A stretch of DNA of 64,000 nt from Deltaproteobacteria bacterium (GCA_947484175.1 CANKOI010000001.1:19752-83751), one strand, 5' to 3'. Shown: positions 10,870-61,285, counted from the stretch's first letter. The notes: generated by a model from the letters alone, not told the origin. A program made the numbers and translations.

Positions 10870-12879
10870 GTGCGCCCCATTCCCCTCCTCGTCGTTCTGC
10901 TGGCAGCTTGCACCGGCACCTCTGAGGGCGGCGACGGCGGAAGCCCCGCGCTGATTTCGTGGACGGACGAGGATGGCGACACCATCCTTGATTTGGACGA
11001 AGGATTTGTGGACCCGACCGAGGTGAGCGACGACACATCTGAGGAAGCAGGCGTTTCCACGGACAGCGACGGCGACGAAACCCCCGACTACCAGGACCTC
11101 GACTCCGACAACGACGACATCCCCGACATCACGGAGGCGGGCGACGACGACGTGGTCACCCTCGCGTGGGACAGCGACTTGGACGGCACCCCCGACTTTC
11201 GCGACCTCGACTCCGACGAGAACTGCATCCGCGACAACGACGAAGGCAACACCGACAAAGACGACGACGGTGTGGGCGCCTACGCCGACCTCGACGACGA
11301 CGGCGATGGCATCCTCGACACCATCGAGATCGGCGCGGATTGCGCGCGGGTCGATACCGACGGCGATGGCACCGCCGACTACCGCGACGAAGACAGCGAC
11401 AACGACGGTGCCCCCGACATCGACGAAGCCGGCACGAGCCCCTGGGAGTCGCAGCCGCGCGACCTCGATGGCGACGGCATTCCCGACTACCTCGACTCCG
11501 ACAGCGACGGCGACGGCTTCTCCGACGCCGAGGAGTCCGGCGGCGGGGAAACCCCGCTCGACACCGACGGCGACGGCATGTGGGATGGCGCCGACACCGA
11601 CGCGGATGGCGACGGCATCCCCGACGCGGAGGAGGCCGCCTACGGCACCGGCCGCCTTAACCCCGACAGCGACGGCGACGGCTTCACCGACGGGGCGGAG
11701 CTCGCGGCAGGCACCAACCCGGCCGACGCGGGCAGTGTCATCGAGGGCATCTACGTCACCGTGGAAGAGCGCACGACGGTGGAGAAGGCATTTGAGTTCA
11801 CGCTGAGCGTGAGCCAGGGCGACATCGGCTTTCTGCTCGACACCACCTGTTCCATGTCGGGAACGCTCAACTCCATGGCCAGCGAGTTTTCGCAGATCGT
11901 CACCCAGCTCAGCGGGGCCCTCCCCGACGCCCAGTACGGCGTGGCCACCTTCGACGACTACAACTACAGCAGCTACGGCACCACCGGCGACAAGATCTAC
12001 GCCCTGATGAAGCCCATCACGACGAGCACGTCGGGGGTTCAGAGCACCCTCTCCGGGCTCGGCATCCACAACGGGGTCGACGGTCCCGAGGGTTCGATGG
12101 AGGCGCTCTACCAAGCGCTCACCGGCGGTGGCTACGACATGAACTGCAATTCCAGCTACGACTCCACGAAGGATGCGAAGCCGTTCATCGCCTCGGGGGC
12201 CGACCCGTTCAACGGCGGCGGCGGGCAAAACTACGACGCAAGCGTGCCGGGCATCGGCACCGGCGGCGGCATGGGCTTCCGCCCCTACGCGCTGCCGGTG
12301 ATCGTGTACGTCACCGACAACTACATGCGCGACCCTGACTCCACCGACCGCTCGTACAACGGCAGCCCTGGCGGCTGCCCGCTCGATGCCGGTTCCGACG
12401 ATGTGGTGGCTGCTGCGAAGGCGCTCAACGCCACCCTGATCGGCATCAGCGTGTCCGGCAACCTTCCCAAGCCGCAGATGGAAGACCTCGCTACCCGCAC
12501 CAAGAGCTACGCCGACACCGATGGCGACGGCGCAGCCGACGACAAACTTGTGTTCTCCTGGAGCGGCAGCTCGGCGAGTCTCCGCACCACGATCGTCGAT
12601 GCGATCGGTGATTTGGTAGACAGCGTGCAGTTCAGCGAGGTGGTGTTGGAGGTCGAGGGCGACGACTACGGGTTCGTGAAGTCGATCAGCCCCGAGAGCT
12701 ACGCGCTCTCCTCGAGCGCCAACGGCCAGAAGCTCGACTTTGACCTCACGTTCCGGGGCGCGGTGGCCGCCTCCGACACCGACCAGACCTACAAGATCAC
12801 CCTCAACGTACTCGGCGATGGCACCGTGCTGCTCGACACCCTCGACATCTACGTTCTGGTTCCGGGGAGGTCCTACTGA
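10870..12879 (+). CDS. Lipoprotein with thrombospondin type-3-like Ca-binding repeats and a vWA-like domain
   Basis: GTG 10870 after GAGG gives VRPIPLLVVLLAAC (lipobox). About 250 aa of DxDxDGxxDxxD repeats, then a MIDAS-like FLLDTTCSMSG with vWA-like spacing. Confidence 0.7.
   Translation: MRPIPLLVVLLAACTGTSEGGDGGSPALISWTDEDGDTILDLDEGFVDPTEVSDDTSEEAGVSTDSDGDETPDYQDLDSDNDDIPDITEAGDDDVVTLAWDSDLDGTPDFRDLDSDENCIRDNDEGNTDKDDDGVGAYADLDDDGDGILDTIEIGADCARVDTDGDGTADYRDEDSDNDGAPDIDEAGTSPWESQPRDLDGDGIPDYLDSDSDGDGFSDAEESGGGETPLDTDGDGMWDGADTDADGDGIPDAEEAAYGTGRLNPDSDGDGFTDGAELAAGTNPADAGSVIEGIYVTVEERTTVEKAFEFTLSVSQGDIGFLLDTTCSMSGTLNSMASEFSQIVTQLSGALPDAQYGVATFDDYNYSSYGTTGDKIYALMKPITTSTSGVQSTLSGLGIHNGVDGPEGSMEALYQALTGGGYDMNCNSSYDSTKDAKPFIASGADPFNGGGGQNYDASVPGIGTGGGMGFRPYALPVIVYVTDNYMRDPDSTDRSYNGSPGGCPLDAGSDDVVAAAKALNATLIGISVSGNLPKPQMEDLATRTKSYADTDGDGAADDKLVFSWSGSSASLRTTIVDAIGDLVDSVQFSEVVLEVEGDDYGFVKSISPESYALSSSANGQKLDFDLTFRGAVAASDTDQTYKITLNVLGDGTVLLDTLDIYVLVPGRSY
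10964..11736 (+). repeat. Coding tandem Asp-rich (TSP3-like) repeat region
   Basis: Recurrent gacagcgacggcgacggc / gacaccgacggcgatggc units encoding D-x-D-x-D-G-x-x-D. Confidence 0.7.
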
Positions 12880-13934
12880 TGCGACACGCTCTAGCCTTCG
12901 CCCTCGGGCTCGCCGCGTGCGACAACGACAACTCGCTCTCCTACGTGCCCGACCACTTCGGCCACGGCGAGGGCGCCATCAGCGGCCGGGTGTGCGATCC
13001 GGAGTCCTACCTCTGGCTCGAGGGCGCGAGCGTCTACACCCACATCATCGACTCCGCGGGAGCCCTTCGCGACACCCGCAAGACCCTCACCGACGAGAAC
13101 GGCGAGTGGATTCTCGACGACCTCGCGGACGGCACCTACACCGTGTACGTGCAATACGGCTCCACCACCGTGGACATGTTCGACGCGGAAGTGCGGAACG
13201 GCGTCGAGTTGGAGGTGCCCAACGCCACCTGCACCGGCTCCGCCGGCACCGACGTGGCCGTGGTCTCCGGCGACTTCGACGACTTCGATGCCGTGTTGAA
13301 AAAAGCCGGACTCGGCGGCGCGCACGAGGTGGATGGGCAGCGGGGGGCCGAGCTCCTGCAATTCCTGGGCAACCTCGAGGAGATGAAGAGCTACGATGCG
13401 ATCTTCTTCGCCGGTGGCCACCTCGAAGAAGGAATCTTCTATGGCAACGAAGGCGACGAGACAGTCAGCACGGTGAAGGCGAACCTGAAGGAGTACGTCG
13501 AGGCGGGCGGCGTGGTGTACGCCAGCGACTGGAGCTACGACGTGATCGCGGAAACGTGGCCCTCGCAGATCGACTTTGTCGGCGACGGCACACCCGACGA
13601 CGCCCAGATCGGCGAGCCAGAGCTGTTGAAGTGCGAGATCACCATCAACGGCTTGGAAGAGGCGGTCGGCAAGGACACCGTGAAGATGAACCTCGACCTC
13701 GACGCGTGGCCGGTCGTGGAGTCGATCGGCGACGACGCGAAGGTCTTTTTGAGGGCCGATGCGCCGTGGCGGAAGGGCATGGAAACCGGCACGGAGAGCA
13801 ACTCCCCGTTGCTCGTGGAGTTCGAGAGCGGGAAGGGCGCCGTGGTGTTCACCTCGTGGCGCATGAGCGCCAACCTCGACGACCCCCAGCTCGACGTCGT
13901 GCGCTGGATCCTCGACCGCCACCTCGGCGAGTGA
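12879..13934 (+). CDS. Lipoprotein with carboxypeptidase-regulatory-like domain and GATase1/ThuA-like C-terminal domain
   Basis: MRHALAFALGLAAC lipobox. The ATG shares one nt with the upstream TGA. ISGRVCD..GASVY..TDENGEW..LADGTYTVYV pattern. DAIFFAGGH motif. Confidence 0.65.
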   Translation: MRHALAFALGLAACDNDNSLSYVPDHFGHGEGAISGRVCDPESYLWLEGASVYTHIIDSAGALRDTRKTLTDENGEWILDDLADGTYTVYVQYGSTTVDMFDAEVRNGVELEVPNATCTGSAGTDVAVVSGDFDDFDAVLKKAGLGGAHEVDGQRGAELLQFLGNLEEMKSYDAIFFAGGHLEEGIFYGNEGDETVSTVKANLKEYVEAGGVVYASDWSYDVIAETWPSQIDFVGDGTPDDAQIGEPELLKCEITINGLEEAVGKDTVKMNLDLDAWPVVESIGDDAKVFLRADAPWRKGMETGTESNSPLLVEFESGKGAVVFTSWRMSANLDDPQLDVVRWILDRHLGE

Positions 13935-13944
13935 ACTTCGCCGC

Positions 13945-14862
13945 GTGGGGCCGTTGCTGGAGCTCTTCAGCGGCCTCGGCGCCGCCGGCCTCGCGTGGGG
14001 CGGCCCCGTTGCCGGCGCCGTGGACCAATCGGCCGCGGCGAATGAAACCTACGCGCTGAACCACGGGCGCCGCCCCGACTGTTGGAACCTTGCCGCGGTG
14101 CGCGAGCAGCAGCTCGCCGGATTCCAAGCCCCCCGCTGGTGGCTCTCGCCGCCCTGCCAGCCCTACACCGTGCGCGGCGCGGCGCGCGACTTGGACGATC
14201 AGCGCGCGCGGGCGCTCATCCACTTGCTCCCCCTGATCCAACGGCTGCGTCCCGCGGTGATCGCCATGGAGAACGTGCCTGGATTTGTGCCTTCCCACTC
14301 GCGCGGGGAGCTGCGCGCCTGCCTCATCGGGGCCGGCTATTCGTTGCACGAGCGGCTGCTCTGCCCCACCGCGCTCGGCTTTCCGATGCGGCGGTTGCGG
14401 TACTATTTGGTGGCCCACCGGGACGCCGGTGCGCCCCATCACGCTGATTTTTCCACGCCGTGCGCACGCCCGCCCGAGCGGCCGCTGCTTGAGTTTCTCG
14501 ACCCCGATCCCGACCCCGAGCTCTGTCTGACCGAGGCCACCGTGCGGGGATTCGGACACTCAGCGCACGTGGTGGACGCCAACGACGCGGTCGCGACGGC
14601 CCATTGTTTCACGTCGGCCTACGGTCGCTCCCCCCTGCGAGCCGGAAGCTACGTGCGCGACTCGCTGGGCATCCGGCGGTTCTCCCCCGAGGAAGTCCTG
14701 CGTTTACTCGGCTTCCCGAGACCGTTCCGTTTCCCTGACGAGACGGCCCGCACGACCCGCTGGGAGCTGGCCGGCAACAGTCTCGCCATCCCCGTGGTGC
14801 GGGCAGTCTTGGCGGGCGCGGGCGTGCTTGCGCCGGCGGCGTCGGTTGTCAACGGCGCTTGA
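13945..14862 (+). CDS. Dnmt2-family cytosine-C5 methyltransferase (probable tRNA C38 methyltransferase)
   Basis: GTG start. Motif I LELFSGLGAAG, motif IV SPPCQPYT, motif VI MENVPGF, and the Dnmt2-specific CFTSAYG, RRFSPEEVLRLLGFPRPFRFP and LAGNSL. Colinear with human TRDMT1 motifs recalled from memory. Confidence 0.85.
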   Translation: MGPLLELFSGLGAAGLAWGGPVAGAVDQSAAANETYALNHGRRPDCWNLAAVREQQLAGFQAPRWWLSPPCQPYTVRGAARDLDDQRARALIHLLPLIQRLRPAVIAMENVPGFVPSHSRGELRACLIGAGYSLHERLLCPTALGFPMRRLRYYLVAHRDAGAPHHADFSTPCARPPERPLLEFLDPDPDPELCLTEATVRGFGHSAHVVDANDAVATAHCFTSAYGRSPLRAGSYVRDSLGIRRFSPEEVLRLLGFPRPFRFPDETARTTRWELAGNSLAIPVVRAVLAGAGVLAPAASVVNGA

Positions 14863-14907: not shown

Positions 14908-15813
14908 ATGCTGTCTCTCGTTGCGTTTCTCCTCATCGGCTGCGAGCCCCCCCCTCCCCCCGTGCCCGGCGTCATCGAGCGCACCGGCGAGGTGCTGAAG
15001 GTCGTGAACGGCCAGAACGTGACCCAAGGCATGGTGGACGCACAGGTAAAGCAGCTCCCGGCCAACGTGCGCGACTCGCTGGTGGCCCGCGGCGGCATGG
15101 ACAAACTCAAGGACAACGTTGTCATCGGAGAGCTGCTCTACCAAGAGGCGCTCAAGCAGAAGCTCGACCAGGACGCTGACGTGAAGGTGGGCATTGCCTT
15201 CGCGGAACGGAACGCGCTCGTCACCGCGCTGCTCGAGCGCACCGTGGCGGCCCGCACCACCGACGAGGCGATCAAGAAGTGGTACGACGAACACGCCGTA
15301 CAGTTCGCCCGCCCCCAGGCCAAGGCCCGCCACATCCTCGTGGCCGACGAAGCCGAGGCCAAGGCCGTCTTTGCCGAGGTTTCCGCCAACCGCGCCGGCT
15401 TCGCCGAGCTGGCCACCAAGAAGAGCACCGACAAGGGCAGCGCCAAGGAAGGCGGCGACCTCGGCTGGTTCGAGAAGGCCCGCATGGTGCCCGAGTTCGC
15501 CGAGGCCGTCTTTGCCGGCAAGAAGGGCGACCTCGTGGGGCCCGTGAAGACCAAGTTCGGCTACCACATCATCGAGATCGAAGAGATGCGCGACAGCGTG
15601 CCGGTCGATGAGGTGAAGGACAAGATCAAGGAGCAGCTGCGCAACGAGGTGATCGAGGGCTACATCGACGAGCTGAAGAAGGCCGCGACGATGACCGACC
15701 CCACGCCGGTTGCCGGAGCCACCGTCACCCCCGCCGCGGGCGGCGCCCCGGCGGCCCCCGCCCCCACCGACGCCCCCGCCTCCGGCGATCACGCCGACCA
15801 CGGGCACAAGTAA
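14908..15813 (+). CDS. Parvulin-type peptidyl-prolyl isomerase lipoprotein (PrsA/SurA-like)
   Basis: MLSLVAFLLIGC lipobox. Parvulin core ARHILV..GGDLGWF..FGYHIIE. GAGGA upstream of the ATG. Confidence 0.85.
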   Translation: MLSLVAFLLIGCEPPPPPVPGVIERTGEVLKVVNGQNVTQGMVDAQVKQLPANVRDSLVARGGMDKLKDNVVIGELLYQEALKQKLDQDADVKVGIAFAERNALVTALLERTVAARTTDEAIKKWYDEHAVQFARPQAKARHILVADEAEAKAVFAEVSANRAGFAELATKKSTDKGSAKEGGDLGWFEKARMVPEFAEAVFAGKKGDLVGPVKTKFGYHIIEIEEMRDSVPVDEVKDKIKEQLRNEVIEGYIDELKKAATMTDPTPVAGATVTPAAGGAPAAPAPTDAPASGDHADHGHK

Positions 15814-24475: not shown

Positions 24476-24503
24476 TTGACAAAGTGTAGACAAACGGTAG
24501 ACT
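24476..24503 (+). promoter_or_regulatory. Candidate sigma-70-type promoter TTGACA-16-TAGACT overlapped by palindrome GTCAAC-n5-GTTGAC
   Basis: TTGACA at 24476-24481, TAGACT at 24498-24503. Perfect 6-bp inverted repeat at 24464-24469 / 24475-24480. About 70 nt upstream of ATG 24574. Confidence 0.35.
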
Positions 24504-24573
24504 GGTCGGCCACGGCGGCGATCCGGCTTCGGCTCGCTCCTCGCGCCCCTCCCCTCGGAACCAGAGTTTACCC

Positions 24574-25494
24574 ATGATCAGCAGCGTTGCCCTTCTCCTC
24601 CTCTCCCTCGTGGCGTGCGACGCCGATCCCGTCGAGACCGCTGGCGAGACCGGCAGCATGGACACCGACACGGGTGGCATGGACACCGACACCGGCGGCA
24701 TGGACACCGACACGGGTGGCGGCGACACCGACACGGCGGCGGCGAGCCTCTACGAGCAGATCGGGGGCGCGGCAGCGGTGGACGCCGTGGTCGAGCAATT
24801 CGTCGCGAACGTGGCGGCCGACCCCAACATCAACTGGTTCTTCGCGCATGCCGACATTCCGATCCTGAAGGCCCAGCTGAAGGACCAGATTTGCGCCGCC
24901 ACGGGCGGTCCGTGCACCTACAGCGGTGGCGACATGGTCACCGTGCACGCGGGTATGGCGATCACGGATGCGCAGTTCGACTTCCTCGTGGCCGACCTGC
25001 TCATGGCCCTCGACACCCTCGGCGTTCCCTACGCGCTCGACGGCTCCGCCACGATCGACCCGCTGCTCTTCGCCCTCGTCGGCATGCGCGGCGACATCGT
25101 CACCGACCCGCAGGGCACCGTCGTGTACTTCAACCAGCTCGGTGGCCACGGCGCGGTTGAGGTGGTGATCGACACCTTCCTCACCAACGTGCTGGCGGAC
25201 CCCGAAATCAACGGGCGTTTCGCGACGACCGACGCCGCAGCGCTCCGCTCGCACCTCATCGACCAGGTGTGCAGCGCCACGGGTGGCTACTGCACCTACA
25301 CGGGCCGCACGATGCTGGAAACCCACCAGGGCATGAACATCACCGAAGCGGAGTTCAACTTCCTCGTTGGCGACCTGCTCAAGGCCCTCGACACGCTCGG
25401 CGTGCCCTACAGCGCTACCCTCGATGGTACCGGACTCGCCGACGCGCTCCTCCTCGCGCTCCTCGGCATGAAGGGCGACATCGTCGGGCACTGA
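24574..25494 (+). CDS. Lipoprotein with two tandem group-I truncated-haemoglobin (Bac_globin) domains
   Basis: LLLLSLVAC lipobox. Two copies of LYEQIGG..AVVEQFV..FF..GGPCTYSG..MVTVHAGMAIT / FNQLGG..VIDTFL..GGYCTYTG..MLETHQGMNIT. Proximal His retained in both. Confidence 0.8.
   Translation: MISSVALLLLSLVACDADPVETAGETGSMDTDTGGMDTDTGGMDTDTGGGDTDTAAASLYEQIGGAAAVDAVVEQFVANVAADPNINWFFAHADIPILKAQLKDQICAATGGPCTYSGGDMVTVHAGMAITDAQFDFLVADLLMALDTLGVPYALDGSATIDPLLFALVGMRGDIVTDPQGTVVYFNQLGGHGAVEVVIDTFLTNVLADPEINGRFATTDAAALRSHLIDQVCSATGGYCTYTGRTMLETHQGMNITEAEFNFLVGDLLKALDTLGVPYSATLDGTGLADALLLALLGMKGDIVGH
24658..24741 (+). repeat. In-frame 21-bp tandem repeat (about 3.5 copies) encoding MDTDTGG
   Basis: atggacaccgacacgggtggc / atggacaccgacaccggcggc / atggacaccgacacgggtggc / degenerate ggcgacaccgacacggcggcg. 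Confidence 0.85.
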
Positions 25495-32828: not shown

Positions 32829-33854
32829 ATGAACACCCCCGTCGTCCAGCGCACCATTCCGTTGCCCCCACCGCCCTGGCCCACCCTCGACCCCTTCCTC
32901 TTCTGCGTGCATCACGACGACACGTACCCCCGTGGCAACGAGAAGCTCGGACCGGCCGCATCTCTGGAGGGCAGGGCGCTCGGCCAAGATTTCGCGGAAA
33001 AGGACGGCTGGCGGATGTACCACGGCCAGCGCGTTCCCGGCTTTCCCAGCCACCCTCATCGCGGATTCGAAACCGTCACGCTCGCGCGGCGGGGGCTCAT
33101 TGATCACTCCGACTCCATGGGTGCCACGGCGCGATTCGGGGGCGGCGACGCGCAGTGGATGACGGCCGGCGGCGGTGTGGTGCACAGCGAGATGTTCCCG
33201 CTCGTGAATTCCGAGACCGGCAACCCCACCGAACTCTTCCAGATCTGGCTGAACCTGCCCTCGCGCAGCAAGCGGGTGAAACCCTATTTTGCGATGCTGT
33301 GGAACGACGAGATCCCCCACGTGGTCGTCGAAACCGGAGGGGCGTTCGCGGAGGCCCGAGTAGTGTCCGGACATCTCGGCGGCGCCCATGCCCCGGCCTG
33401 CCCTCCCGACAGTTGGGCCGCCGATCCTCAGAACGACGTGACGATCGCCACCCTGAAGCTCGAAGCCGGCGCGGCCTTCACGTTGCCCCCCGCGCTCGTT
33501 GGTGTTCAGCGGGTCCTCTACTTCTTCGCGGGCACCCAGCTCCGCATCAATGGCCATGCCGCACCGGCGCGCCATGCTCTCCAGCTCTTGGCCAGCGAAC
33601 CAGCGGAGCTGGTGGCGGCCGACGCCTGTGAGCTGCTGGTGCTCCAGGGGCGCCCCATCGGGGAGCCGGTCTGCCAGCACGGCCCGTTCGTCATGAACAC
33701 CCAGAGCGAGGTGCAGCAGGCGTTCGCCGACTACCGCCGCACCCAATTCGGCGGCTGGCCGTGGCCGTCGCCCGAGCCGGTCCACGCGGCCAGCGAAGGC
33801 CGCTTCGCCAAGCACGCCGACGGGCGGGTGGAGCGCCCGGCTAGCTTGGTTTGA
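32829..33854 (+). CDS. Pirin-family protein
   Basis: Cupin metal motif HPHRGFETVT; overall length and bicupin pattern. Confidence 0.85.
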   Translation: MNTPVVQRTIPLPPPPWPTLDPFLFCVHHDDTYPRGNEKLGPAASLEGRALGQDFAEKDGWRMYHGQRVPGFPSHPHRGFETVTLARRGLIDHSDSMGATARFGGGDAQWMTAGGGVVHSEMFPLVNSETGNPTELFQIWLNLPSRSKRVKPYFAMLWNDEIPHVVVETGGAFAEARVVSGHLGGAHAPACPPDSWAADPQNDVTIATLKLEAGAAFTLPPALVGVQRVLYFFAGTQLRINGHAAPARHALQLLASEPAELVAADACELLVLQGRPIGEPVCQHGPFVMNTQSEVQQAFADYRRTQFGGWPWPSPEPVHAASEGRFAKHADGRVERPASLV

Positions 33855-35778
33855 AGCCCGAGTAGACCACCCACCGCCAACAGTCACGGATCGCCCCCGT
33901 GGGGGAGATTTCAAAGGGGTGGATAGCGCGAACCTCCGCGGGACAGTGGTGGTAGAGGTCCCGGATCTGGTGCCGGTGCAACAGGGGGGTTTCCCAGGTG
34001 GCAATCCAATTGTCGATGTCCTCCCACTGCAAGTATTCTTGCTTGGAGAGGTTCACGAACCCCGCCTGTTCCAGCAGCGCGCGCACATCTTCGTCGTAGA
34101 GGTTGTTCACGAACAGGGGCTGTTTCTTCTTCACCACCTGAAACATCCAGGGTCCGTCTACCGCGCCGAAGGGCACCCACTGCCCCACCACGAACTGGCC
34201 ACCGGGCTTGAGCACGCGGAAGATCTCAGCCAGCGGTCGCTCGGGTTGCGGCAGCAGATGCAGCACCTCGCGGTTGCACACGCCATCGAAGCTCGCCTCC
34301 GGGAAAGGGATGTCGTACACATCCCCTAAGACGACCTCGTCGAGACGCTTTCGCGAGAGGGCCACCATCTCCGGCGTGAGGTCGAGCCCCACGATGCGCC
34401 CCACCTTGCCACGGAAGCTTGCCCCGACCACGCCCGAGCCGCAGCACACGTCGAGGAGCACGGCGTCGTCGGCGAGTTGGCTGGAGCCGCCGTGCATCGC
34501 GAGCAGCCCGGCGTTGGTGATCCAGTCGGCCGAGGTGTGCCAGGTCTTCGACCGGATGCCGAATTGCTGCCGGTAGATTTCTTTGTCGACGAGGTGCTCC
34601 ACACGCTCGTACCGAGCGCGCTCGCTGGCCCGCCGCGAAGCGAGGCGGGCACGCCCGGCTTCGACGGCCCGCCCCACGACCGCTGCGGCGTCCGCCGGGT
34701 TGGCGCGCAGCCACGCCGCGAGGGCGACCCCGACCGCCGACTCCACGGCGCGCCCCGCGGGGGGGTCTAGCAGGCGGGTCTTGGTCTGCCCTTCGAAGTG
34801 GGGGTCGGGCATGCGCACCGACAGCACCGCCACGAGGCCCTCGAGGGTGTCGTTCACCTCCAGCGGCTCGGTGCTGTCCAGCAGCCGGGCCTCACGGGCA
34901 TAGCGGGTGAGCGCCTGCCCCACGGCCGCGCGCAGGCCGTCGGCGTGGGCGCCCCCGAGCGGGGTGTACACGTGGTTCACGAAACCCTGAAAGTTCTCGG
35001 CGAAGGCTCGGGTCCACAACAACGCAGCAGACACCTCGTGAGGACCGACCGTCGCCGCCACCGACACCGGCCGGGCGTGCACCCGCTCTTGCCCTTCCGC
35101 CAGCCACGCCGCGAAGCCCGCGATGCCCTCGTCGGAGGAGAAGGTCACTTCGCCGGCGGGGCTCACCAGCCGACAGGACAATCCCGAGCTGAGCCAGCTC
35201 TGGCAGCGCAGCCAGCGCTCCACCGCACCCACGTCGGCGCGCGCGCGCCCGAACACCGCTGGGTCGGCCCGGAAGCGCACCGTAGTGCCCGAACGCGCGG
35301 CGTCTCCCACGCGCACAAAGGGCTCAACGGCGAGCCCTTGGGCCCAGCGGCCGCGCCAGCGACCGCCCTCGCGGCACACCTCCAACTCGAAGGTGGCGGA
35401 GAGCGCGTTCACGCAGGTGAGGCCCACGCCGTGGAGTCCGCCCGGCAGGCGGTAGGCGCCTTCCTGAAATTTCCCGCCCGCGTGCAGCTCCGTGACGAGC
35501 ACTTCCGGGATGCGCATTCCCGTGGGCGGGTACACCTCCACCGGAATGCCGCGCCCGTTGTCACTCACCGCCCACTCGTCGTCCAACCCGAGCACGACGT
35601 GCACTTCGGTGGCCTGCCCGGCGAGCGCTTCGTCGAGCGCGTTCTGGAGCACCTCGATCACCAGCTGCATCACGCCGTCGGGGCCGGTGGAGCCGACGTA
35701 CATCGCCGGCCTCATCCTCACCGCCGCCAGCCCCTTCAGAACAACGATGCTGTCTGCATCGTAGCGCATCTCACCCAT
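33841..35778 (-). CDS. Fusion protein: GyrB-type GHKL ATPase + transducer (43K fragment) fused to a class I SAM-dependent methyltransferase; no TOPRIM/C-terminal domain
   Basis: N-terminus YDADSIVVLKGLAAVRMRPAMYVG, IEVLQNALDEALAG, SDNGRGIP, LHAGGKF, GGLHGVG, FEGQTKTRL, colinear with E. coli GyrB residues about 5-390. From about residue 440, MTase motif I LLDVCCGSGVVG, LDLTPEMV, VLKPGGQFVV. Confidence 0.8.
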   Translation of the reverse strand: MGEMRYDADSIVVLKGLAAVRMRPAMYVGSTGPDGVMQLVIEVLQNALDEALAGQATEVHVVLGLDDEWAVSDNGRGIPVEVYPPTGMRIPEVLVTELHAGGKFQEGAYRLPGGLHGVGLTCVNALSATFELEVCREGGRWRGRWAQGLAVEPFVRVGDAARSGTTVRFRADPAVFGRARADVGAVERWLRCQSWLSSGLSCRLVSPAGEVTFSSDEGIAGFAAWLAEGQERVHARPVSVAATVGPHEVSAALLWTRAFAENFQGFVNHVYTPLGGAHADGLRAAVGQALTRYAREARLLDSTEPLEVNDTLEGLVAVLSVRMPDPHFEGQTKTRLLDPPAGRAVESAVGVALAAWLRANPADAAAVVGRAVEAGRARLASRRASERARYERVEHLVDKEIYRQQFGIRSKTWHTSADWITNAGLLAMHGGSSQLADDAVLLDVCCGSGVVGASFRGKVGRIVGLDLTPEMVALSRKRLDEVVLGDVYDIPFPEASFDGVCNREVLHLLPQPERPLAEIFRVLKPGGQFVVGQWVPFGAVDGPWMFQVVKKKQPLFVNNLYDEDVRALLEQAGFVNLSKQEYLQWEDIDNWIATWETPLLHRHQIRDLYHHCPAEVRAIHPFEISPTGAIRDCWRWVVYSGFKPS

Positions 35779-36235
35779 CCACCGACTCCGCCCGCAGCGC
35801 CGCGATGCGCGCCGCGTGGAACACCCGCAGGCGGCTCACACTCTCAAACCAGCTCCCGATGTCGGAGAACCCCTCGCGTCGGGCCGTGGTGGCCCTCGCC
35901 CCCTGCGCCTCGGCGTCCCGGTCGTAGAACTTCTCCAAGACGGCGAGGTTTTCGCTGGTCGTGCCCGCCCGTGCCCCGAGCAGCGCCTCTCGCGATCTTA
36001 AGAGCAGATCGAGCGTGGTGCTGGCGTTGAGCGCATGCTGTTCGGCCATCTCCCGAAGCGCCCGAGAGGCTTCGCTGCGCCCCTCGATCTCCGCGATGCG
36101 GGCAAACCAGGCGCATTCGGTGGAGGCCACCGCTTCGTCGCGGAGCGCGGCTTCGAGGTGCTCGCGGGTGAGCGCGTCGTCGAGGCGGGGCGCGGCCGAA
36201 CGGGCCGGCGCCGCCGAGGGGGAAGGATCAGGCAT
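35771..36235 (-). CDS. Ferritin/rubrerythrin-like four-helix-bundle protein (metal ligands partly degenerate)
   Basis: 154 aa. Two-fold pattern TREHLEAAL..EA....FARIAEIEG....EMAEQH and TSENLAVLE..ARREGF....ESVSRLRVFH resembling rubrerythrin halves. 8-nt overlap with the downstream gene. Confidence 0.5.
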   Translation of the reverse strand: MPDPSPSAAPARSAAPRLDDALTREHLEAALRDEAVASTECAWFARIAEIEGRSEASRALREMAEQHALNASTTLDLLLRSREALLGARAGTTSENLAVLEKFYDRDAEAQGARATTARREGFSDIGSWFESVSRLRVFHAARIAALRAESVDG

Positions 36236-36240
36236 GGGGT

Positions 36241-37857
36241 TCAGACCGAGACGCTGAACTCGCGCTCGTTCACGCGGCTGAGGGTCACCCCTTCTCCCGC
36301 GGCATAGAGCCCGCGGTAGGCCAGAGCCCCTGGGTCGATGACGCCGCCGGCGCTCGCGAAGGACGCGCGCCAGTCGGTGGTCGGTTCGGGGTCGTAGTAG
36401 GCGAAGTGCTCGGGGAAGTGCTGGAAGTCCATCACCGGCCCGGGCTGGTAGCTATCGTAGAGCCGCTTGTAGCTGCGCCGCATCTTCTCTTCGGGCAGCC
36501 GGTTGTAGTTGATGAACTCGTCGCGTTCGAGCGCCTGCTCCACGGCCAGCCAACGCAGGTGCTCCACTTCGTCGCGGATGGCGCCACTTTGCAGCGAGTC
36601 CCGGTAGACCGTGGTGCCGGGCATGGCCGACAGGTACTTCACGCGCGTGATGTGGTGGTTGTCTTCCGCCCACTCACACATGTGGTCGAGCGAGCCTTCG
36701 TCCTCCTCGGGCAGGCCGACGATCGTGAGGCCGCCGTAGCGCACGCCTGCGTCCCACGTGTTTTTCATCGCCTTGTAGACCAAGTTCTCCGTGCTCCCCT
36801 TCCGGGCCATCTTGAGCGCCGCCTTGCCCAGAGACTCCACGCCGTAAAGCGCGATGTCGCAGCCCGCCGTGCCCATCGCGGCCGCCACTTCCGCGTCCAC
36901 ATCGGCGTTGCGGGTGAGACAGGTCCAACGCAGGTCCTGATCCCGAATCACGTCGAGGTATTCCAAGGTCTGCGGCTTGTGCGCGGTGAAGGTGAGGTCG
37001 ACGAAGAAGACAAAGTCGATGTCGTACTTCCGCTTGTACTCCGCCAGCTCGGCGTGCAACTTCTGCGGACTCTTCACGCGCTCCTGAGGGGTGGTGCGGT
37101 AGCAGAAGGAGCAGTCCATCTTGCAGCCGCGGCTGTAGCTGGCGATGATCTGCTTTTGGAGCCCGCGTGGGTCGCGCGACTGTGGCCAGAGATCGAGGTT
37201 CATCGCAGGCAACGAATCCAGGTTGGGCATCTGTCCGCGCGGCGCGGTCTGATGCACGGCGCCTTGGGCATCACGGAACCAGATTCCCTTGATCTCGGGC
37301 AGCCGCGCGCCCCACAGCCCGCTGGCGAAGGCCTCCATCACCTCGAGGATGGTGAGCTCACCCTCGGAGATCACGGCCACGTCGGCCGCCGTTTCGCGCA
37401 TGAAGACGTGGGGCACCGACGTGACGAGCGAACCTCCCAACACGATCGGGAGCCGCGGGCGCGATGCCTTCACCTCGCGGATCAGCTGCTCCAAGAAGGG
37501 GTAGCAGTCCTCGTAGGTGGCGAGCCCCAGGATGTCGCAGCCCTCCATGATCTGGCGGTAGGCCGACTCCAACGGCGCGCGGTCGTACCGAACATCGATG
37601 ATCCGCACCGGGTAGCCGGCGTTGTGAAGCACGGTGGCGATGTACGAAATGCCCTCGTACGGGGAGGTGAGAAAGAACTCCCAGCCGCGGGGCATGGTGA
37701 ACGGTGAGGGGCCCACGACGAGCGCGATGCTGGGCAGCTGCCGATTGGTGGAAACGGGACTGGCGGCCTGCTGGGCCATCAGGTCCATCAGCTGCTGATC
37801 GGTGCGACCGTTGGCCACGGCGTACAGGGCGGGGTCGAGCGAAGGGACGTAGGCCAA
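36241..37857 (-). CDS. B12-binding-domain radical SAM protein (class B type)
   Basis: TTG start at 37857 preceded by GAGGAG with a 5-nt spacer. N-terminal Rossmann-like B12 domain (IALVVGP..GISYIATVL..DILGL). CxxxCxxC as RGCKMDCSFCY. No SPASM Cys clusters. Confidence 0.8.
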   Translation of the reverse strand: MAYVPSLDPALYAVANGRTDQQLMDLMAQQAASPVSTNRQLPSIALVVGPSPFTMPRGWEFFLTSPYEGISYIATVLHNAGYPVRIIDVRYDRAPLESAYRQIMEGCDILGLATYEDCYPFLEQLIREVKASRPRLPIVLGGSLVTSVPHVFMRETAADVAVISEGELTILEVMEAFASGLWGARLPEIKGIWFRDAQGAVHQTAPRGQMPNLDSLPAMNLDLWPQSRDPRGLQKQIIASYSRGCKMDCSFCYRTTPQERVKSPQKLHAELAEYKRKYDIDFVFFVDLTFTAHKPQTLEYLDVIRDQDLRWTCLTRNADVDAEVAAAMGTAGCDIALYGVESLGKAALKMARKGSTENLVYKAMKNTWDAGVRYGGLTIVGLPEEDEGSLDHMCEWAEDNHHITRVKYLSAMPGTTVYRDSLQSGAIRDEVEHLRWLAVEQALERDEFINYNRLPEEKMRRSYKRLYDSYQPGPVMDFQHFPEHFAYYDPEPTTDWRASFASAGGVIDPGALAYRGLYAAGEGVTLSRVNEREFSVSV

Positions 37858-37935
37858 TGAGACTCCTCAGCCAAGCTGAGTGGAAGCGTACCGGTCGGCC
37901 CCGCGGCCGTCAACCCGATCCGCGCTGGAGCGGCC

Positions 37936-39357
37936 TCAGAATACAGTGATGTGCTCTTCCGCGACGCCGAGGTAGCGGTTGGGGTCGGTGTTCATCCCGC
38001 CCATCCACGTGCGGATGTCTTGCTCCAGCTCGTAGGCGGTGCGCGGGTCGGTTTCACTGAGGTCGGTGCTCTCCTGCGGGTCGGCGCCGAGGTCGTGCAG
38101 CTGCTTCTGGCCGTCCGCGAGGTCGAGGATCAGCTTCTTGCCATCGCGGGTGCGAGCCCGCAGGTGGACAAAGAGGCGGTAGTCCGATTCGGCGTAGATC
38201 GGCAGGTCGACCTGCTCGCCCCGCAAGAGCGGCAGGAGGCTCTTGCCGTCGATGTCCGGGGGCGGGGCCACCCCGAGCGCGTCGAACAGCGTGGGGAAGG
38301 TGTCCAAGGTGCGCACCGGCGTGTCGACCACCCGCGCTCCTTCGCCGCCCGGAAACCGAATCATCAGCGGCACGTGCAGCTGGTGCTCGCAGATCGTCGC
38401 CCCGTGGTCGAGGTAGCCGTGTTCCATGAACTCCTCGCCGTGGTCGGCCAGCACCACCACGAGGCTCTTGTCCATGAGCCCCAGCTCGCGCACGCGGGCG
38501 AAGAACAGCCCGAGCCGCTCATCGGCCTCGCGCACCTTCTGCTGGTACACCTTCAGCAGGATGGCCGCATCTTCGGGCGAGATGTCCCCCTTGGCGGGAT
38601 CGCCCGGCTTCACAATCGCGGCGAGGCCGGCCTCGCGGAGCTTCGCCTGCTGCTCGATGCTCCCGTCGATCGTGCCCTGGTAGTCGGGGGCGAGCTCCGC
38701 GACCGTCTTGGTCATCGGGTGCTGGCCGTGAACGTCGTAGCCGTGGAAGAACATCAGGAAGTGGTGGTCGGCGTTGGCGCTGAGCCACTCCATGGCGGGG
38801 GGGCCGGAGTAGTCCATCCCCGCGAACACCTTGTCGTCGAGGTAGGTGGTGAAGCCACGGTTGTAGCCGAACTTCCCGGAAATGCCGGCGCCCCCCGTGA
38901 AGGCGACCGCCTCCCAGCCCTGTTTGCTCAGCTCCTCCGGCAACAGCGGGATCGTGTCCTTCAGGCGGTCGAGGACGAGCTCCTTGCCTCCCGCCGGATC
39001 GGGCACGAGCTTGTTGACCACACCGTGGTGGGAGGGCCAACGTGCAGTGAAGATCGCCATGTGGGCGGGCACTGTCCAGGGCGCGGGAGACGTGGCGTTG
39101 GAGAAGGCTACGGCCTCCTTCTGAAAGGCGTCGAGGTTGGGGGTGAAGGTGCCACCGCCGAGACCCGTGTGGTCGAAACGCAGGGCATCCATGCTCACCA
39201 CGATCACGTTCAGCGCCGAGGCGCGCGCGGCGTAGTCGAACGACGGCCCCTTGGGGGCGGACGGCTTGGCCGCAGGCGAGGCCCCCGCGGGAGGCTCCTC
39301 CGCGGCGCAGGCGGCGGCAAACAACAGCGCGGTGAGGGCAAAGGGCAGGACGCGCAT
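37936..39357 (-). CDS. Sulfatase-like (alkaline-phosphatase superfamily) hydrolase/transferase lipoprotein
   Basis: ATG 39357 after GGAG gives MRVLPFALTALLFAAAC. Metal site VVSMDALRFDH. Nucleophile region PWTVPAHMAIFTARWPSHHG (Thr type, no C/S-x-P-x-R). Later LADHGEEF. Confidence 0.75.
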   Translation of the reverse strand: MRVLPFALTALLFAAACAAEEPPAGASPAAKPSAPKGPSFDYAARASALNVIVVSMDALRFDHTGLGGGTFTPNLDAFQKEAVAFSNATSPAPWTVPAHMAIFTARWPSHHGVVNKLVPDPAGGKELVLDRLKDTIPLLPEELSKQGWEAVAFTGGAGISGKFGYNRGFTTYLDDKVFAGMDYSGPPAMEWLSANADHHFLMFFHGYDVHGQHPMTKTVAELAPDYQGTIDGSIEQQAKLREAGLAAIVKPGDPAKGDISPEDAAILLKVYQQKVREADERLGLFFARVRELGLMDKSLVVVLADHGEEFMEHGYLDHGATICEHQLHVPLMIRFPGGEGARVVDTPVRTLDTFPTLFDALGVAPPPDIDGKSLLPLLRGEQVDLPIYAESDYRLFVHLRARTRDGKKLILDLADGQKQLHDLGADPQESTDLSETDPRTAYELEQDIRTWMGGMNTDPNRYLGVAEEHITVF

Positions 39358-39424
39358 TGTGGACTCCGGAACGCGGGCATAACGCCTCGGTGCGGAGAAG
39401 CCGGAGGCCTGCGCTCGCGGGCGG

Positions 39425-41833
39425 CTACTTGCCTTCGAAGTCGCCGTCGGCATCCCCAGGAGGCTCGGCGCCACCAGGCCCCGACGCCCGTCCCATCGAC
39501 CAAAGGGTGGCAAATCCGAGGGGGATGAGGATGAAGCCCCCGAGGGTCACCGCCACCTCGCCGAGCAACACCAGGAGCCCCAGCGAACGGATGCCCTGCG
39601 AGGAGCCCAACGACAGCGCCGCGAAGGCCACGACGGTCGTGGAGGTTCCCAAGGCACTCGCCCACCCCGTCGTGGACAACGACTTGATCACGCCTCCCGG
39701 TCCTTCCTCCTCGAACCGGTGGATCAAGTGGATCATCACATCGATGCCGATGCCCAGCACAATGGGCACACCGACGAAGTTCACCATCGAGATCTTGATG
39801 CCCGTCATCACCAGCAGCGCCACCCACCACGCCACGCCCGCCAACAGCACAGACATCGCGCCCGCCACGGCCCACACCCGCCTTAGGTCGAGCGAGGTGA
39901 AGAACAAGACGAGGCAGAAGGCCACCGCGGCGATGATGGGGGCGTCCCGGTGCATGAGGCGGAAGAGCACGCCGAGGGTCACGTACTCGCTGGCGATCAC
40001 GGTATCGGGGAACTCACGCTCCATCACTTCGGTGAGGTGGTAGGCCTCCCGCATGTCCCACATGTTGCCGGACGGCACCATCAACATCCGGTGGCGGCCA
40101 CCGAGCGCGCCGAGGGCGTGCTGAACGCCGCGGGGCAGTTCGCTGGCGCTCATCACATGCGGGTCGGCCGCCGACACGCGCTTCAAGTTCTCGCGCACGG
40201 CGGCGGGGAGAAACGCCGTGTTGGGGTCAGCCGACAGTTGCGCGAGGTCTCGCAGCACCTCCACTCGCTCCGCCTGATCTTCCGGCAGAATGGACCGGAT
40301 CGACAACACTTGGGTGATCTCGGGAAGCTTACCGGCTTGCACCTTTTTGCTCACCCGCGCGACCGCTGCGTTGAGCTCCCCTTCGGAGGCGTAGCTGATC
40401 ACCAAGGGGGCGTAGCTCTCGCGGGCGAGCGCCTGTTGACGAGGGGTGAGGTCGGCGTAGGCGAGCCCCTGCCGCCGGAGCTCCGAAAGATCGAACTCAA
40501 ACTCCACGTTCCTCACGAAGAGGCCCGCCACGATCGTAAAACCGGCGAGGAGCGTGAGCGTCATTGGCGCGAGGTGGTACACCGCGGGCAGCTTTCGTCC
40601 GCGAAGTCCAGAGCGGGCCGTGCGGCTCAACGGCCCCCGACGGTCGAGCCACACCACGAGGAGGGGCATCAACAGCATCTCGGCAATGAGCGTGAGCACC
40701 AGCCCCAAGGACAAGAGCCAACCGAGCTGCCGGAACCCGGCAAAGTGCGCGAACAAGAGCGCCGCGAACCCCGCCGAACTGGTGAGCGCGGCGCTGGTGC
40801 ACGCGCCGCCTACGAGGTCCCATGCCCGGACCACAGCGTCCTCGATCGAGTCGCCCGCCTCCACACACTCTCGGATTCGAGCGTAGAGGTGCACCCCGAA
40901 CTCCACGCCGAGCCCGATGAGCACGGCATTCACGAAGCTGGTGAAGGTGTTCAGCCCACCCACCGTGGCCCCGGCGATGCCGAGCGTCCACAGATTGCTC
41001 AGCGCCAGCGGGATGAAGATCACGGCGAGCGCGCGCGGCGTGCGGAACGCGAGCGTAATGATGAAGAGGACGAGGACCAGGCTGGCCGCGGTCGTGGTGA
41101 AGATGTCCTCGACGATGGCTTCGTAATCCTCGACGTTGTGCCGGTAGGCGCCGCCCTTCCACACCACGCTCACGGTCGGATGGTGCGCTTCGACCACCGC
41201 GAGGTGTTCATCCACGCGCTTCATGAACTGAGCGGCGAAGGGCAGGTCGTGAGCGGAGCCACGCGGCCGCACGATCATGCGGGCCACGCCGGACTCCGAG
41301 ACCAACTTCAGGTCGTCGTCCCCCTGCTGGAGCTTCTCGGTAAGGGAACCGAGATCGAGCACGCTCGCCGCGATCAGGGGGTTCGCGAGCGCGGACCCGA
41401 GCGTGGTGGCGCTCTGCACCCGGTCCCGGATGGTGGTGAGCTCCTCGACGGAGAGCGAGAGCAGGCCGAGCTTGAACGCAGTGTCGGGGTCGATCCGGTA
41501 GAGGACGTAGTCCACATCGGGGTCGGCTTCGAGGAGGCCTTGAAGCTCCCCCATGAACGCGTCGCGAGCCACCGGGTCTTCCGCCTCGGCGGCGATGGTG
41601 AGCACGTTTACCCCGCCCTCCTCGGCGTCGAGGCTCGCCAAGGCCTTCGTGGAAGGCTCCTCGCTCGGCATCAGGTGCAGGATGTCGCTGTCCACCCGCA
41701 CCCGGGACGCGAACCCAGCGGCCACCGCGGAGACGGCCGCAAGGAGCAGCAGCAGCAGCAGCTTGTGGTCGAGAACCCAACGGGCCAGACGGCCGTAGAA
41801 GCCCCGCGGAGTGTAGGACATGGTCGCGCGCAT
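39425..41833 (-). CDS. RND-superfamily MMPL-type exporter (two 6-TM bundles, two periplasmic loops)
   Basis: In-frame ATG 41833 or 41821 (MRATMSYTPRGFYGRLARWVLDHKLLLLLLLAAV). Duplicated TM bundles with the SSD-like pattern. The upstream 119 codons of the track ORF are non-coding-like. Confidence 0.75.
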   Translation of the reverse strand: MRATMSYTPRGFYGRLARWVLDHKLLLLLLLAAVSAVAAGFASRVRVDSDILHLMPSEEPSTKALASLDAEEGGVNVLTIAAEAEDPVARDAFMGELQGLLEADPDVDYVLYRIDPDTAFKLGLLSLSVEELTTIRDRVQSATTLGSALANPLIAASVLDLGSLTEKLQQGDDDLKLVSESGVARMIVRPRGSAHDLPFAAQFMKRVDEHLAVVEAHHPTVSVVWKGGAYRHNVEDYEAIVEDIFTTTAASLVLVLFIITLAFRTPRALAVIFIPLALSNLWTLGIAGATVGGLNTFTSFVNAVLIGLGVEFGVHLYARIRECVEAGDSIEDAVVRAWDLVGGACTSAALTSSAGFAALLFAHFAGFRQLGWLLSLGLVLTLIAEMLLMPLLVVWLDRRGPLSRTARSGLRGRKLPAVYHLAPMTLTLLAGFTIVAGLFVRNVEFEFDLSELRRQGLAYADLTPRQQALARESYAPLVISYASEGELNAAVARVSKKVQAGKLPEITQVLSIRSILPEDQAERVEVLRDLAQLSADPNTAFLPAAVRENLKRVSAADPHVMSASELPRGVQHALGALGGRHRMLMVPSGNMWDMREAYHLTEVMEREFPDTVIASEYVTLGVLFRLMHRDAPIIAAVAFCLVLFFTSLDLRRVWAVAGAMSVLLAGVAWWVALLVMTGIKISMVNFVGVPIVLGIGIDVMIHLIHRFEEEGPGGVIKSLSTTGWASALGTSTTVVAFAALSLGSSQGIRSLGLLVLLGEVAVTLGGFILIPLGFATLWSMGRASGPGGAEPPGDADGDFEGK

Positions 41834-41875
41834 AGCGCGCCCGCCCGAGAAGCGCCGCGAGCCCCCCGCGATGCC

Positions 41876-41904
41876 TTGCAGACCCCCGCCTCCCGTCGTA
41901 TCGT
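41876..41904 (+). promoter_or_regulatory. Candidate promoter TTGCAG-17-TATCGT only 10 nt upstream of the sigma-factor ATG
   Basis: TTGCAG 41876-41881, TATCGT 41899-41904, ATG 41915. No Shine-Dalgarno sequence in between. Confidence 0.3.
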
Positions 41905-41914
41905 GCGGGCGTTC

Positions 41915-42622
41915 ATGTCCTTCACCCCCGCCCAGCGCGACGCCCTGATTCTCGACCACGTCGCGCTGGTCCGGATCATCGCGGGCCGCCTCGCGCGGCG
42001 CCTCCCGAGCAGCGTGGATGTCGACGAGCTCGTGAGCGTGGGCACCGTGGGACTGATCGACGCGATCGACCGCTTTGATCCCGAGCGCGGCGTGCCCTTC
42101 AAGGGTTTCGCCGACCTGCGTATTCGCGGCGCGATGGTGGACTACCTGCGCGGGATCGACCCGGTTTCTCGTGCGGTCCGGCGGAAGCACAACGCCCTCG
42201 AAGCGAAACGAACGGAGCTGAGGAACCGCCTCGGGCGCGCACCCACCCGCGAAGAGATGGCCCGCGGCCTCGAGCTCCAGCCTCAGGCCTACGACGACAT
42301 GGTCGACGCCGCCCTGCTCTTCAGCGTGGTGAGCAGCGACACCCCGCTAGACGAAGACGCCGGCACGACGATCGGGGACCAGCTCTCGGGGCAGGAGACG
42401 AACGTCGAGGACGCCTGGGTGGCTCGAGAACTCACGGCCGAGATGCTGGCCGCCCTCGAAAACCTCCCGGAGCGCGAGCGTATCGTCGTGACCAAATTCT
42501 ATCTGGAGAGTCGCACGCTCAAGGAGATCGGGTCCGAGTTGGCGGTGACCGAGTCCCGCGCTTGTCAGATCGCGAAGGCGGGCACCGCTCGGATGCGAGT
42601 ACGCCTACTCCCCGGGCAGTAA
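41915..42622 (+). CDS. FliA/WhiG-family (sigma-28 type) RNA polymerase sigma factor
   Basis: Only the last 235 codons of track ORF 39950..42622 are coding. LVRIIAGRLARRLPSSVDVDELVSVGTVGLIDAIDRFDPERGVPFKGFADLRIRGAMVDYLR. Region 4.2 LKEIGSELAVTESRACQI. Confidence 0.85.
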   Translation: MSFTPAQRDALILDHVALVRIIAGRLARRLPSSVDVDELVSVGTVGLIDAIDRFDPERGVPFKGFADLRIRGAMVDYLRGIDPVSRAVRRKHNALEAKRTELRNRLGRAPTREEMARGLELQPQAYDDMVDAALLFSVVSSDTPLDEDAGTTIGDQLSGQETNVEDAWVARELTAEMLAALENLPERERIVVTKFYLESRTLKEIGSELAVTESRACQIAKAGTARMRVRLLPGQ

Positions 42623-57589: not shown

Positions 57590-57819
57590 GAAAGCTCCCG
57601 CGGCGGGGGAAGCGGCACGGGGTCGAACCCGCCCGCGTGAAGCGGGTGACACCGGCAGATGCGCTTCGCGCCCAACCACCCACCCTGCAGGGGGCCCCAC
57701 GCGCGGATCGCCTCGGCCGTGTACCGACTGCAGCTCGGATAGAACCGACACATCGGGGGCATGAACCGTGAAACGAGCCGTTGCCAGCCGCGAATTAGGG
57801 TGAGGAGGAACCAGGTCAT
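57586..57819 (-). CDS. yidD: Membrane protein insertion efficiency factor YidD
   Basis: 77 aa. [24 protein letters not shown] motif. Confidence 0.9.
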
Positions 57820-58172
57820 CGGGAAGATCGGGTGAGGAGCGAATCAAGTTCGGCGGTGAGCGGCGCGAAACCGGCCAGAGCGGCCGCGGGGAGAGCGATA
57901 AGCACGAGATCACGGTTCGGCGGCATTCGATCCGCCAAGGCGCGCAGAGCTTCGCGGAGCCAACGTTTCACGCGGTTCCGAACCACGGCGTTTCCCACCT
58001 TGCGGCTGACGGCGAGCCCCGCCCGCGAGCGCCCCGCTTCACGAAGGGCAACGACCAGCGTGAGGAAACGACCGCGTTGACGGCGCCCCGTGCGCTGCGC
58101 GTGGGAGAAGTCCGCCGAACGACAAAGGCGCTCGGGTGGCTCAGTCGCGCTTGGAGGCAATCGTGACGACAA
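57816..58172 (-). CDS. rnpA: RNase P protein component
   Basis: [15 protein letters not shown].., [20 protein letters not shown] (RNR motif). TTG start lying inside rpmH; exact start uncertain. Confidence 0.8.
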
Positions 58173-58299
58173 GGCGCTTGCGGCCCTTGGTGCGCCGACG
58201 AGCGAGCACGTTGCGGCCGGCCGGCGTGGCCATGCGGGCGCGGAAACCGTGGGTGCGCTTGCGGCGCTTGTTGTGGGGCTGAAAGGTGCGCTTGGACAT
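58141..58299 (-). CDS. rpmH: 50S ribosomal protein L34
   Basis: Manual translation of the minus strand: [52 protein letters not shown]. Below the ORF-track length cutoff. Confidence 0.95.
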
Positions 58300-61276: not shown

Positions 61277-61285
61277 GGAGAGCTC

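Follow-up and report, generated by a model that had tools for sequence, protein, structure and literature searches.

The subject is a 64,000-nt stretch of DNA from Deltaproteobacteria bacterium (GCA_947484175.1 CANKOI010000001.1:19752-83751), called here the window, to which all coordinates refer. The gene at 13945-14862 on its plus strand encodes a cytosine-C5 methyltransferase of the Dnmt2/TRDMT1 family. This interpretation is supported by sequence, by fold and by phylogeny. The match to the C5-methyltransferase family is far beyond chance, and for the window gene taken alone the family assignment is sound but unsurprising. The bacterial branch that holds both this protein and the studied Geobacter enzyme, GsDnmt2, is far more widespread in bacteria than the papers found say. 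The protein is read as a stand-alone, chromosomal, S-adenosylmethionine (SAM)-dependent enzyme of that branch, with tRNA-Asp(GUC) and/or tRNA-Glu(UUC) as candidate substrates; a probability of about 0.8 is given to this reading.

The gene is an intact, uninterrupted open reading frame (ORF) of 305 amino acids (aa) with a GTG start, the stop codon being included in the coordinates. The protein consists of a single domain with no large extra domains, and its motifs stand in the order canonical for C5-cytosine methyltransferases. It is matched by Pfam PF00145 (DNA_methylase) with an expectation value (E) of 2e-25; the sole offer of NCBIfam is a generic dcm superfamily model, which scores under its cut-off. 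The gene and its motifs are as follows.

13945..14862, plus strand: Dnmt2-type (TRDMT1-like) C5-cytosine methyltransferase gene, from the ORF call, PF00145, and the PDB and fold matches.
13966..13989, plus strand: SAM-binding motif I, FSGLGAAG, residues 8-15, with G-L-G-A in this lineage in place of the usual G-x-G-G.
14146..14169, plus strand: motif IV, SPPCQPYT, residues 68-75; the nucleophile Cys71 is at 14155-14157.
14269..14277, plus strand: motif VI, ENV, residues 109-111 (Glu109).
14383..14406, plus strand: motif VIII, PMRRLRYY, residues 147-154 (Arg150, Arg152); Met instead of the Gln of Q-x-R-x-R.
14605..14625, plus strand: CFT motif of the target-recognition domain, CFTSAYG, residues 221-227.
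14674..14718, plus strand: motif IX block, RRFSPEEVLRLLGFP, residues 244-258.
14773..14784, plus strand: motif X, GNSL, residues 277-280.

An earlier note on this DNA had listed the catalytic C5-methyltransferase motifs FSGLG (residues 8-12), PPCQPYT and ENV; all are read directly off the translation, in the right order. The translation likewise gives the motifs named there as Dnmt2-type: CFTSAYG, the RxFSPxEVxRLLGFPxxFxFP block (motif IX stretch RRFSPEEVLRLLGFPRPFRFP, residues 244-264) and the xGNSL tail (AGNSL, residues 276-280). Colinearity with human TRDMT1, also claimed, is borne out by SPPCQP[FY]T, ENV, CFT..Y, RxF[ST]PxE..LxGFP and GNS[LI], which are colinear with eukaryotic Dnmt2. The target-recognition region, described as short and rich in proline and acidic residues, is seen as such at residues ~160-200. 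An ORF on the opposite strand at 13849-14559 is not regarded as a gene; it is a typical shadow ORF of high-GC DNA, and its equivalents overlap the methylase gene elsewhere.

In the PDB, sequence and fold alike are matched best by eukaryotic Dnmt2, TRDMT1, Pmt1 and Ehmeth proteins (PDB 1g55, 9hgm, 6fdf, 4h0n, 3qv2), not by type II DNA methylases, so that the BLASTP comparison proposed earlier comes out on the side of Dnmt2. In the single-sequence search four eukaryotic Dnmt2 proteins rank first, with E of 3.6e-29 for human DNMT2, 6.4e-28 for S. pombe Pmt1 (residues 4-288) and 1.9e-24 for the Spodoptera protein, against 1.6e-15 for M.HhaI. A family profile (A1), made from an alignment of 19 diverse bacterial homologues, finds five eukaryotic Dnmt2 proteins at E 8.5e-69 to 6.8e-50 over most or all of the length; Pmt1, Spodoptera and Entamoeba are aligned at positions 2-292 and the two human entries in two segments. 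M.HhaI is found by the same profile at E 4.5e-31 and at positions 3-184 only, and the C-terminal half does not align with M.HhaI or M.HaeIII. In the reverse test a hidden Markov model (HMM) from 115 eukaryotic Dnmt2 sequences gives 160 bits for the window protein and 216 bits for a Geobacter homologue, with a bacterial family median of 194 bits, versus 63-109 bits for five DNA methylases. The AlphaFold2 model of the window protein has a predicted local distance difference test score (pLDDT) of 91.5. In a Foldseek search of the PDB with this model, the first nine ranks are taken by Dnmt2 chains (E 4e-26 to 1.4e-22, template modelling (TM) score 0.81-0.83); M.HhaI comes next at E 1.7e-19, the margin in TM-score being small.

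Diagnostic residues were read from a multiple alignment of 70 sequences, comprising 47 bacterial and 18 eukaryotic Dnmt2-type sequences and five DNA methylases (M.HhaI, M.HaeIII, Dcm and two plasmid methylases). The motif IV Cys is invariant in all 70. Cys71, Glu109, Arg150 and Arg152, the catalytic set of the DNA-methylase-type mechanism, are all intact in the window protein and invariant in the alignment. With the DNA C5-methylases (M.HhaI, M.HaeIII, E. coli Dcm, plasmid dcm) the protein shares the PF00145 fold, the motif order and the catalytic Cys, Glu and Arg. It differs in that only its N-terminal half aligns with them, at ~18-25% identity, and in that it has SPPCQPYT and P-M-R-R-L-R, whereas they have GFPCQxFS and P-Q-x-R-x-R and no CFT. 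SPPCQP[YF]T is common to the window protein and eukaryotic Dnmt2; so are the loss of Gln from Q-x-R-x-R, the RxF[ST]PxE...GFP and GNSL motifs, and the CFT motif with its Tyr and Gly, none of which occurs in the five DNA methylases.

The CFT motif is the literature marker that defines Dnmt2 (PMC3227630, PMC4041430). In its column, C is found in 45 of 47 bacterial sequences and in all 18 eukaryotic ones, and T in 4 of the 5 DNA methylases; a regular-expression search over the family sequences finds CFT in 190 of 274 and TFT in 17. Tyr226 and Gly234, equivalent to human Y297 and G305, are invariant in the 65 Dnmt2-type sequences aligned. Motif VIII reads NR in 110 and MR in 66 family members; in place of the Q of this motif most Dnmt2 have N and G. 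metallireducens has M (PMC10653749), Met or Ser being the Geobacter residues.

Mammalian TRDMT1 is 34% identical to the window protein over the catalytic half. Eukaryotic Dnmt2 proteins form a separate clade and are longer (median 382 aa vs 305 aa), with an insertion of their own of 15-30 residues between the CFT region and motif IX, which the window protein lacks; the TRED of mammalian Dnmt2 is absent as well. Motif I is Y-S-G-x-G-G-M in eukaryotes versus F-S-G-L-G-A-A in the window protein, and motif VIII is P-N-S-R versus P-M-R-R.

GsDnmt2 (GSU0227) is the studied member of the bacterial branch. It methylates C38 of tRNA-Glu in vitro as well as in vivo, having switched from tRNA-Asp to tRNA-Glu (PMC4041430); the shifted tRNA specificity that the earlier note attributed to the bacterial enzyme is thus on record. 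The one-genome-per-species scan described below recovered a homologue in Geobacter hydrogenophilus DSM 13691 (L045), which shares 47% identity with the window protein over 299 aa (E 9e-76). Its N-terminus, LRALELFCG, resembles MRAVELFC, the product of the GSU0227 cloning primer (PMC4041430), and the protein is probably the orthologue of GsDnmt2. Like the window protein, it has ~300 aa and a motif set with CFT and P-M-R-R-x-R-Y-Y, belongs to the same bacterial clade, is encoded by a solitary chromosomal gene and is without eukaryote-type insertions. Unlike it, the Geobacter protein has motif I GIGGF (GLGAAG in the window protein) and R/R at the positions of human R275/K367 (G/T in the window protein). 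The window host is a high-GC, Myxococcota-like lake organism, and the gene neighbourhood differs.

A neighbour-joining (NJ) distance tree was made from the 70 aligned sequences (288 columns, 100 replicates) with the five DNA methylases as outgroup; its eukaryotes comprise opisthokonts and Amoebozoa only. Bacterial and eukaryotic Dnmt2-type sequences stand apart from the five DNA methylases in 100/100 replicates, and the eukaryotes are monophyletic in 99/100. The window protein and its closest relative, from a lake metagenome-assembled genome (MAG), form a pair inside a bacterial group with Geobacter, Desulfuromonas and Syntrophales. The earlier note had named a position among ordinary type II DNA C5-methyltransferases as the outcome that would count against Dnmt2; the protein groups instead with Geobacter and eukaryotic Dnmt2, away from the five DNA methylases.

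The proposal amounts to DNA-methylase chemistry applied to RNA, and its parts at the level of the window protein (tRNA methylation, the C38 position, the choice of tRNA) are carried over by homology. Dnmt2 methylates tRNA by a DNA-methylase-type mechanism (PMC5699548). By this mechanism the target, C38 in a tRNA whose anticodon loop is CUNNCAC, would be flipped into the active site, where Cys71 of motif IV would attack C6 while Glu109 of ENV and Arg150/Arg152 of motif VIII would activate and hold the base. The SAM methyl group would then be moved to C5 and the enzyme freed by beta-elimination. The anticodon stem-loop is predicted to be bound by the CFT-containing region (Cys221, Tyr226, Gly234) together with Arg77, Arg87, Arg201, Arg269 and Arg272, and the variable loop is among the features that may decide which tRNA is used. 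A GG dinucleotide within that loop of the tRNA blocks methylation (PMC4041430).

Several observations weigh against a Dnmt2-type tRNA methyltransferase with these substrates. Motif I is G-L-G-A-A-G, versus the near-universal G-x-G-G of C5-methylases. Only one of the eight basic residues that human DNMT2 needs for tRNA methylation (R84, R95, K122, R275, R289, K295, K367, R371) is kept in position, namely R95 as window R87; arginines of the window protein lie 1-2 residues from the equivalents of R84, R275, K367 and R371, and the Geobacter homologue likewise lacks most of the eight, R84, K122, R289 and K295 among them. The window lineage is divergent, the 160 bits of its protein on the eukaryotic Dnmt2 HMM falling below the bacterial median. 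The PADLOC type II methylase model aligns over the full length (90 bits). An exact match to the GSU0227 primer is absent from the fetched loci, so that the orthology with GsDnmt2 is not backed by sequence identity and rests on the sister species G. hydrogenophilus. No tRNA genes, with their C38 and variable-loop determinant, are present in the 64-kb window. The divergent motif I, the changed basic residues and the lack of eukaryotic insertions leave the substrate choice open; they are not an argument against family membership.

One rival reading is a shift of substrate within the family. The protein would then be a Dnmt2-type RNA methyltransferase acting on another set of tRNAs, on another position, on another structured RNA or on tRNA-like DNA. 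GsDnmt2, with its move from tRNA-Asp to tRNA-Glu, offers a precedent (PMC4041430); most tRNA-binding positions of human DNMT2 are changed in the window lineage, whose G202, T270 and E274 stand at sites where R or K is retained by most bacterial members; and the target-recognition domain is short, without the eukaryotic insertion before motif IX and without TRED. Yet R201, R269 and R272 sit 1-2 residues from changed positions, so the basic surface may be preserved, CFT, Y226 and G234 are intact, and no positive pointer to any alternative substrate was found; such a shift is considered unlikely. Quite unlikely, too, is a solitary (orphan) DNA C5-methyltransferase that, like Dcm, marks a short chromosomal motif for regulation or repair and does not act on tRNA. 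Eukaryotic Dnmt2 is a far nearer match to the window protein than any of the DNA methylases tested; the protein has the CFT motif, lacks the Q of Q-x-R-x-R and is encoded with no Vsr or restriction gene nearby, and the studied member of its branch methylates tRNA-Glu in vivo (PMC4041430). These points stand against a fold and catalytic motifs that are those of DNA C5-methylases, matches to the PADLOC MTase_II and 'orphan MTase' models, a passage of PMC5456315 that states bacterial DNMT2 to act on DNA, and the weak DNA activity retained by Dnmt2 proteins (PMC5699548, PMC5699543). All database names of the family are also 'DNA cytosine methyltransferase', but these are automatic labels from PF00145.

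The change from GxGG to GxGA in motif I could also mean that the enzyme is catalytically weakened or inactive and persists as an RNA-binding protein or a relic. The position is G in 120/120 eukaryotic Dnmt2 and in 5/5 DNA methylases and Ala in the window lineage. After GxG, however, 'AA' occurs in 32 of 274 family members and 'AF' in 14 others (GG in all 120 eukaryotic Dnmt2), and FSG[LI]GAAG is conserved throughout the sub-lineage of the window protein (homologues P0001-P0032, 52-100% identity). With Cys71, Glu109, Arg150 and Arg152 all intact, a ratio of nonsynonymous to synonymous substitution rates (dN/dS) of ~0.2-0.3 and a model that is confident around motif I (pLDDT 94-96), such weakening or loss of activity is highly improbable.

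Dnmt2 is the classic example of a DNA-methylase fold put to work on tRNA, and where it came from remains under debate. Published accounts speak of 'very few' bacterial homologues (Geobacter, Holophaga) and propose transfer from eukaryotes (PMC3227630, PMC4041430, PMC5699548); the literature search found no paper that describes a wide bacterial distribution of Dnmt2. The statement of the earlier note that only a few bacterial lineages carry the gene did not hold. Among 185,579 species, represented by one genome each, 363 loci of the bacterial Dnmt2 family were found, in Myxococcota-like, Acidobacteriota, Planctomycetota, Syntrophales and Geobacter/Desulfuromonas genomes; 363 is a minimum, as only near-exact matches to the motif patterns are picked up by the scan. 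There are 785 proteins at E < 1e-5 among the word-sharing candidates, and 223 clusters at 50% identity and E <= 1e-30, the best 150 being 35-59% identical to the window protein. Going by their record titles, the best 80 of the 363 loci belong to lake 'Deltaproteobacteria' and Myxococcota MAGs, Acidobacteriota (Thermoanaerobaculia and others, including Ca. Multivoradales), Pirellulaceae, Planctomycetaceae, Syntrophales, Geobacter and Desulfuromonas. Homologues from Acidobacteriota (Thermoanaerobaculia) are many, at ~45-49% identity to the window protein; the bacterial Dnmt2-like group also has an Acidobacteriota member in the putative Dnmt2 of Holophaga foetida, reported with CFI instead of CFT (PMC4041430).

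The mean corrected distance is 1.05 within the bacterial sample vs 0.76 within the sampled eukaryotes. In the 100 NJ replicates bacteria are nested in eukaryotes once, eukaryotes are nested in bacteria 49 times, and both are monophyletic 50 times. The bacterial clade is thus not nested in the sampled eukaryotes, and the transfer from eukaryotes to bacteria that the earlier note thought probable is unsupported by this tree. With limited sampling of eukaryotes, five outgroup sequences and a simple method, the tree does not settle the direction of transfer. It is possible, as a tentative view held at somewhat less than even odds, that bacterial Dnmt2 is an old and diverse bacterial family of tRNA methyltransferases from which eukaryotic Dnmt2 came by transfer to the eukaryotic stem. 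The window lineage would then be a divergent branch with an altered motif I and tRNA-binding surface, possibly with a substrate choice of its own.

With the window protein the family gains a member from a lake bacterium that is Myxococcota-like and high in GC, and a much larger bacterial family comes to light that is systematically annotated as 'DNA cytosine methyltransferase'. It would be wrong to count genes of this family among DNA methylases or the orphan components of restriction-modification systems. The direction of transfer between bacteria and eukaryotes is open again, several bacterial phyla may have 5-methylcytosine at position 38 of tRNA, and a broad tree is now at hand on which to place the Geobacter switch from tRNA-Asp to tRNA-Glu.

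The methyltransferase gene lies between the following two genes.

12879..13934, plus strand: upstream gene for a putative lipoprotein that has an LAAC lipobox and a CarboxypepD_reg-like domain; 10-nt gap to the methyltransferase gene.
14908..15813, plus strand: downstream gene, PpiC-type peptidyl-prolyl isomerase with lipobox LIGC; 45-nt gap after the stop codon.

The position given earlier, 10 nt behind two lipoprotein genes and with no restriction partner, agrees with what was found. The upstream ORF ends at 13934, and the two upstream ORFs both have LAAC lipoboxes and are predicted lipoproteins as read from the sequence. The neighbours are a TSP3-repeat lipoprotein, the CarboxypepD_reg lipoprotein, the PpiC isomerase, a FabL/FabI-like reductase (SDR) and an esterase; no restriction, Vsr or defence family was matched among them by domain and PADLOC scans. 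In this the gene differs from plasmid dcm genes, which adjoin restriction endonuclease genes, and from E. coli dcm, which adjoins vsr.

An identical protein with the same upstream gene is found on two other assemblies. About 10 related loci from lake MAGs, L001-L003 and L006-L011 among them, have the same local gene order and methylases of 52-76% identity; the CarboxypepD_reg neighbour is also present in L084 and related MAG loci. No conserved partner gene recurs across the family in an all-vs-all clustering of ORFs from 81 loci. The widely shared clusters 1-3 and 6 were rejected as partners, being shadow ORFs that overlap the methylase or its neighbours, or spurious ORFs; the remaining shared clusters are lineage-specific neighbours or common Ser/Thr kinases. 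A lineage-specific linkage, not seen in the window, occurs in Syntrophales/Syntrophaceae (L040, L050, L051, L070-L072, L074, L075, L078), where a gene of ~135-170 aa lies ~0-20 nt behind the Dnmt2 homologue or overlaps it. Contigs L004, L011, L052 and L054 carry close homologues and are deposited as 'MAG: Klebsiella pneumoniae' or 'uncultured Enterobacteriaceae'; these labels look wrong. The methylases of L004 and L052 are ~60% identical to the window protein, and L011 and L052 share neighbour clusters with the window.

The gene has a native composition, with a GC content of 0.71 (0.85 at third codon positions) vs 0.686 for the window. Its dN/dS against five related genomes is 0.18-0.32, with dS near saturation; the gene is under purifying selection. 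Among 72,556 plasmids the nearest relatives are dcm genes next to restriction genes, with 25% identity; no match was obtained in 50,697 phage records, and IMG/VR gave partial matches only, of 22-31% identity. Origin from a mobile element was rejected for want of close plasmid, phage or IMG/VR relatives. The window is regarded as chromosomal because yidC, dnaA and dnaN are present. The interval 55952-63999 is a chromosomal replication-origin gene cluster, with two further ORFs after dnaN, and the Dnmt2 gene is ~44 kb from dnaA.

55952-57967, minus strand: yidC.
58480-59880, plus strand: dnaA.
60122-61273, plus strand: dnaN.

Linkage to tRNA genes was rejected; the window has none, and 60 related loci have scattered, unrelated tRNAs only. 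A 'tRNA-Glu(CTC)' of 85 nt called by ARAGORN at 2639-2723 of L039 is probably false and looks like GC-rich coding DNA.

Three further regions were noted elsewhere in the window. The minus-strand ORF at 33844-35835 (664 aa) has an unusual architecture, a fusion of the GyrB N-terminal half with a SAM methyltransferase domain of class I. Its residues 22-409 match GyrB over its GHKL ATPase and transducer (362 bits, positions 7-399 of gyrase B), and residues ~455-600 match Methyltransf_11 (5.5e-22). The methyltransferase takes the place of Toprim and the C-terminal part of GyrB, and near 62887 a normal gyrB-like ORF seems to begin. The plus-strand ORF at 24490-25491 (334 aa) contains two stretches that match bacterial-like (truncated) globin (PF01152, 3.1e-25) and has no NCBIfam match. 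On the minus strand at 36244-39546, a B12-binding radical SAM protein (36244-37866) adjoins a sulfatase (37939-39546), followed by an MMPL-family transporter (39428-42346).

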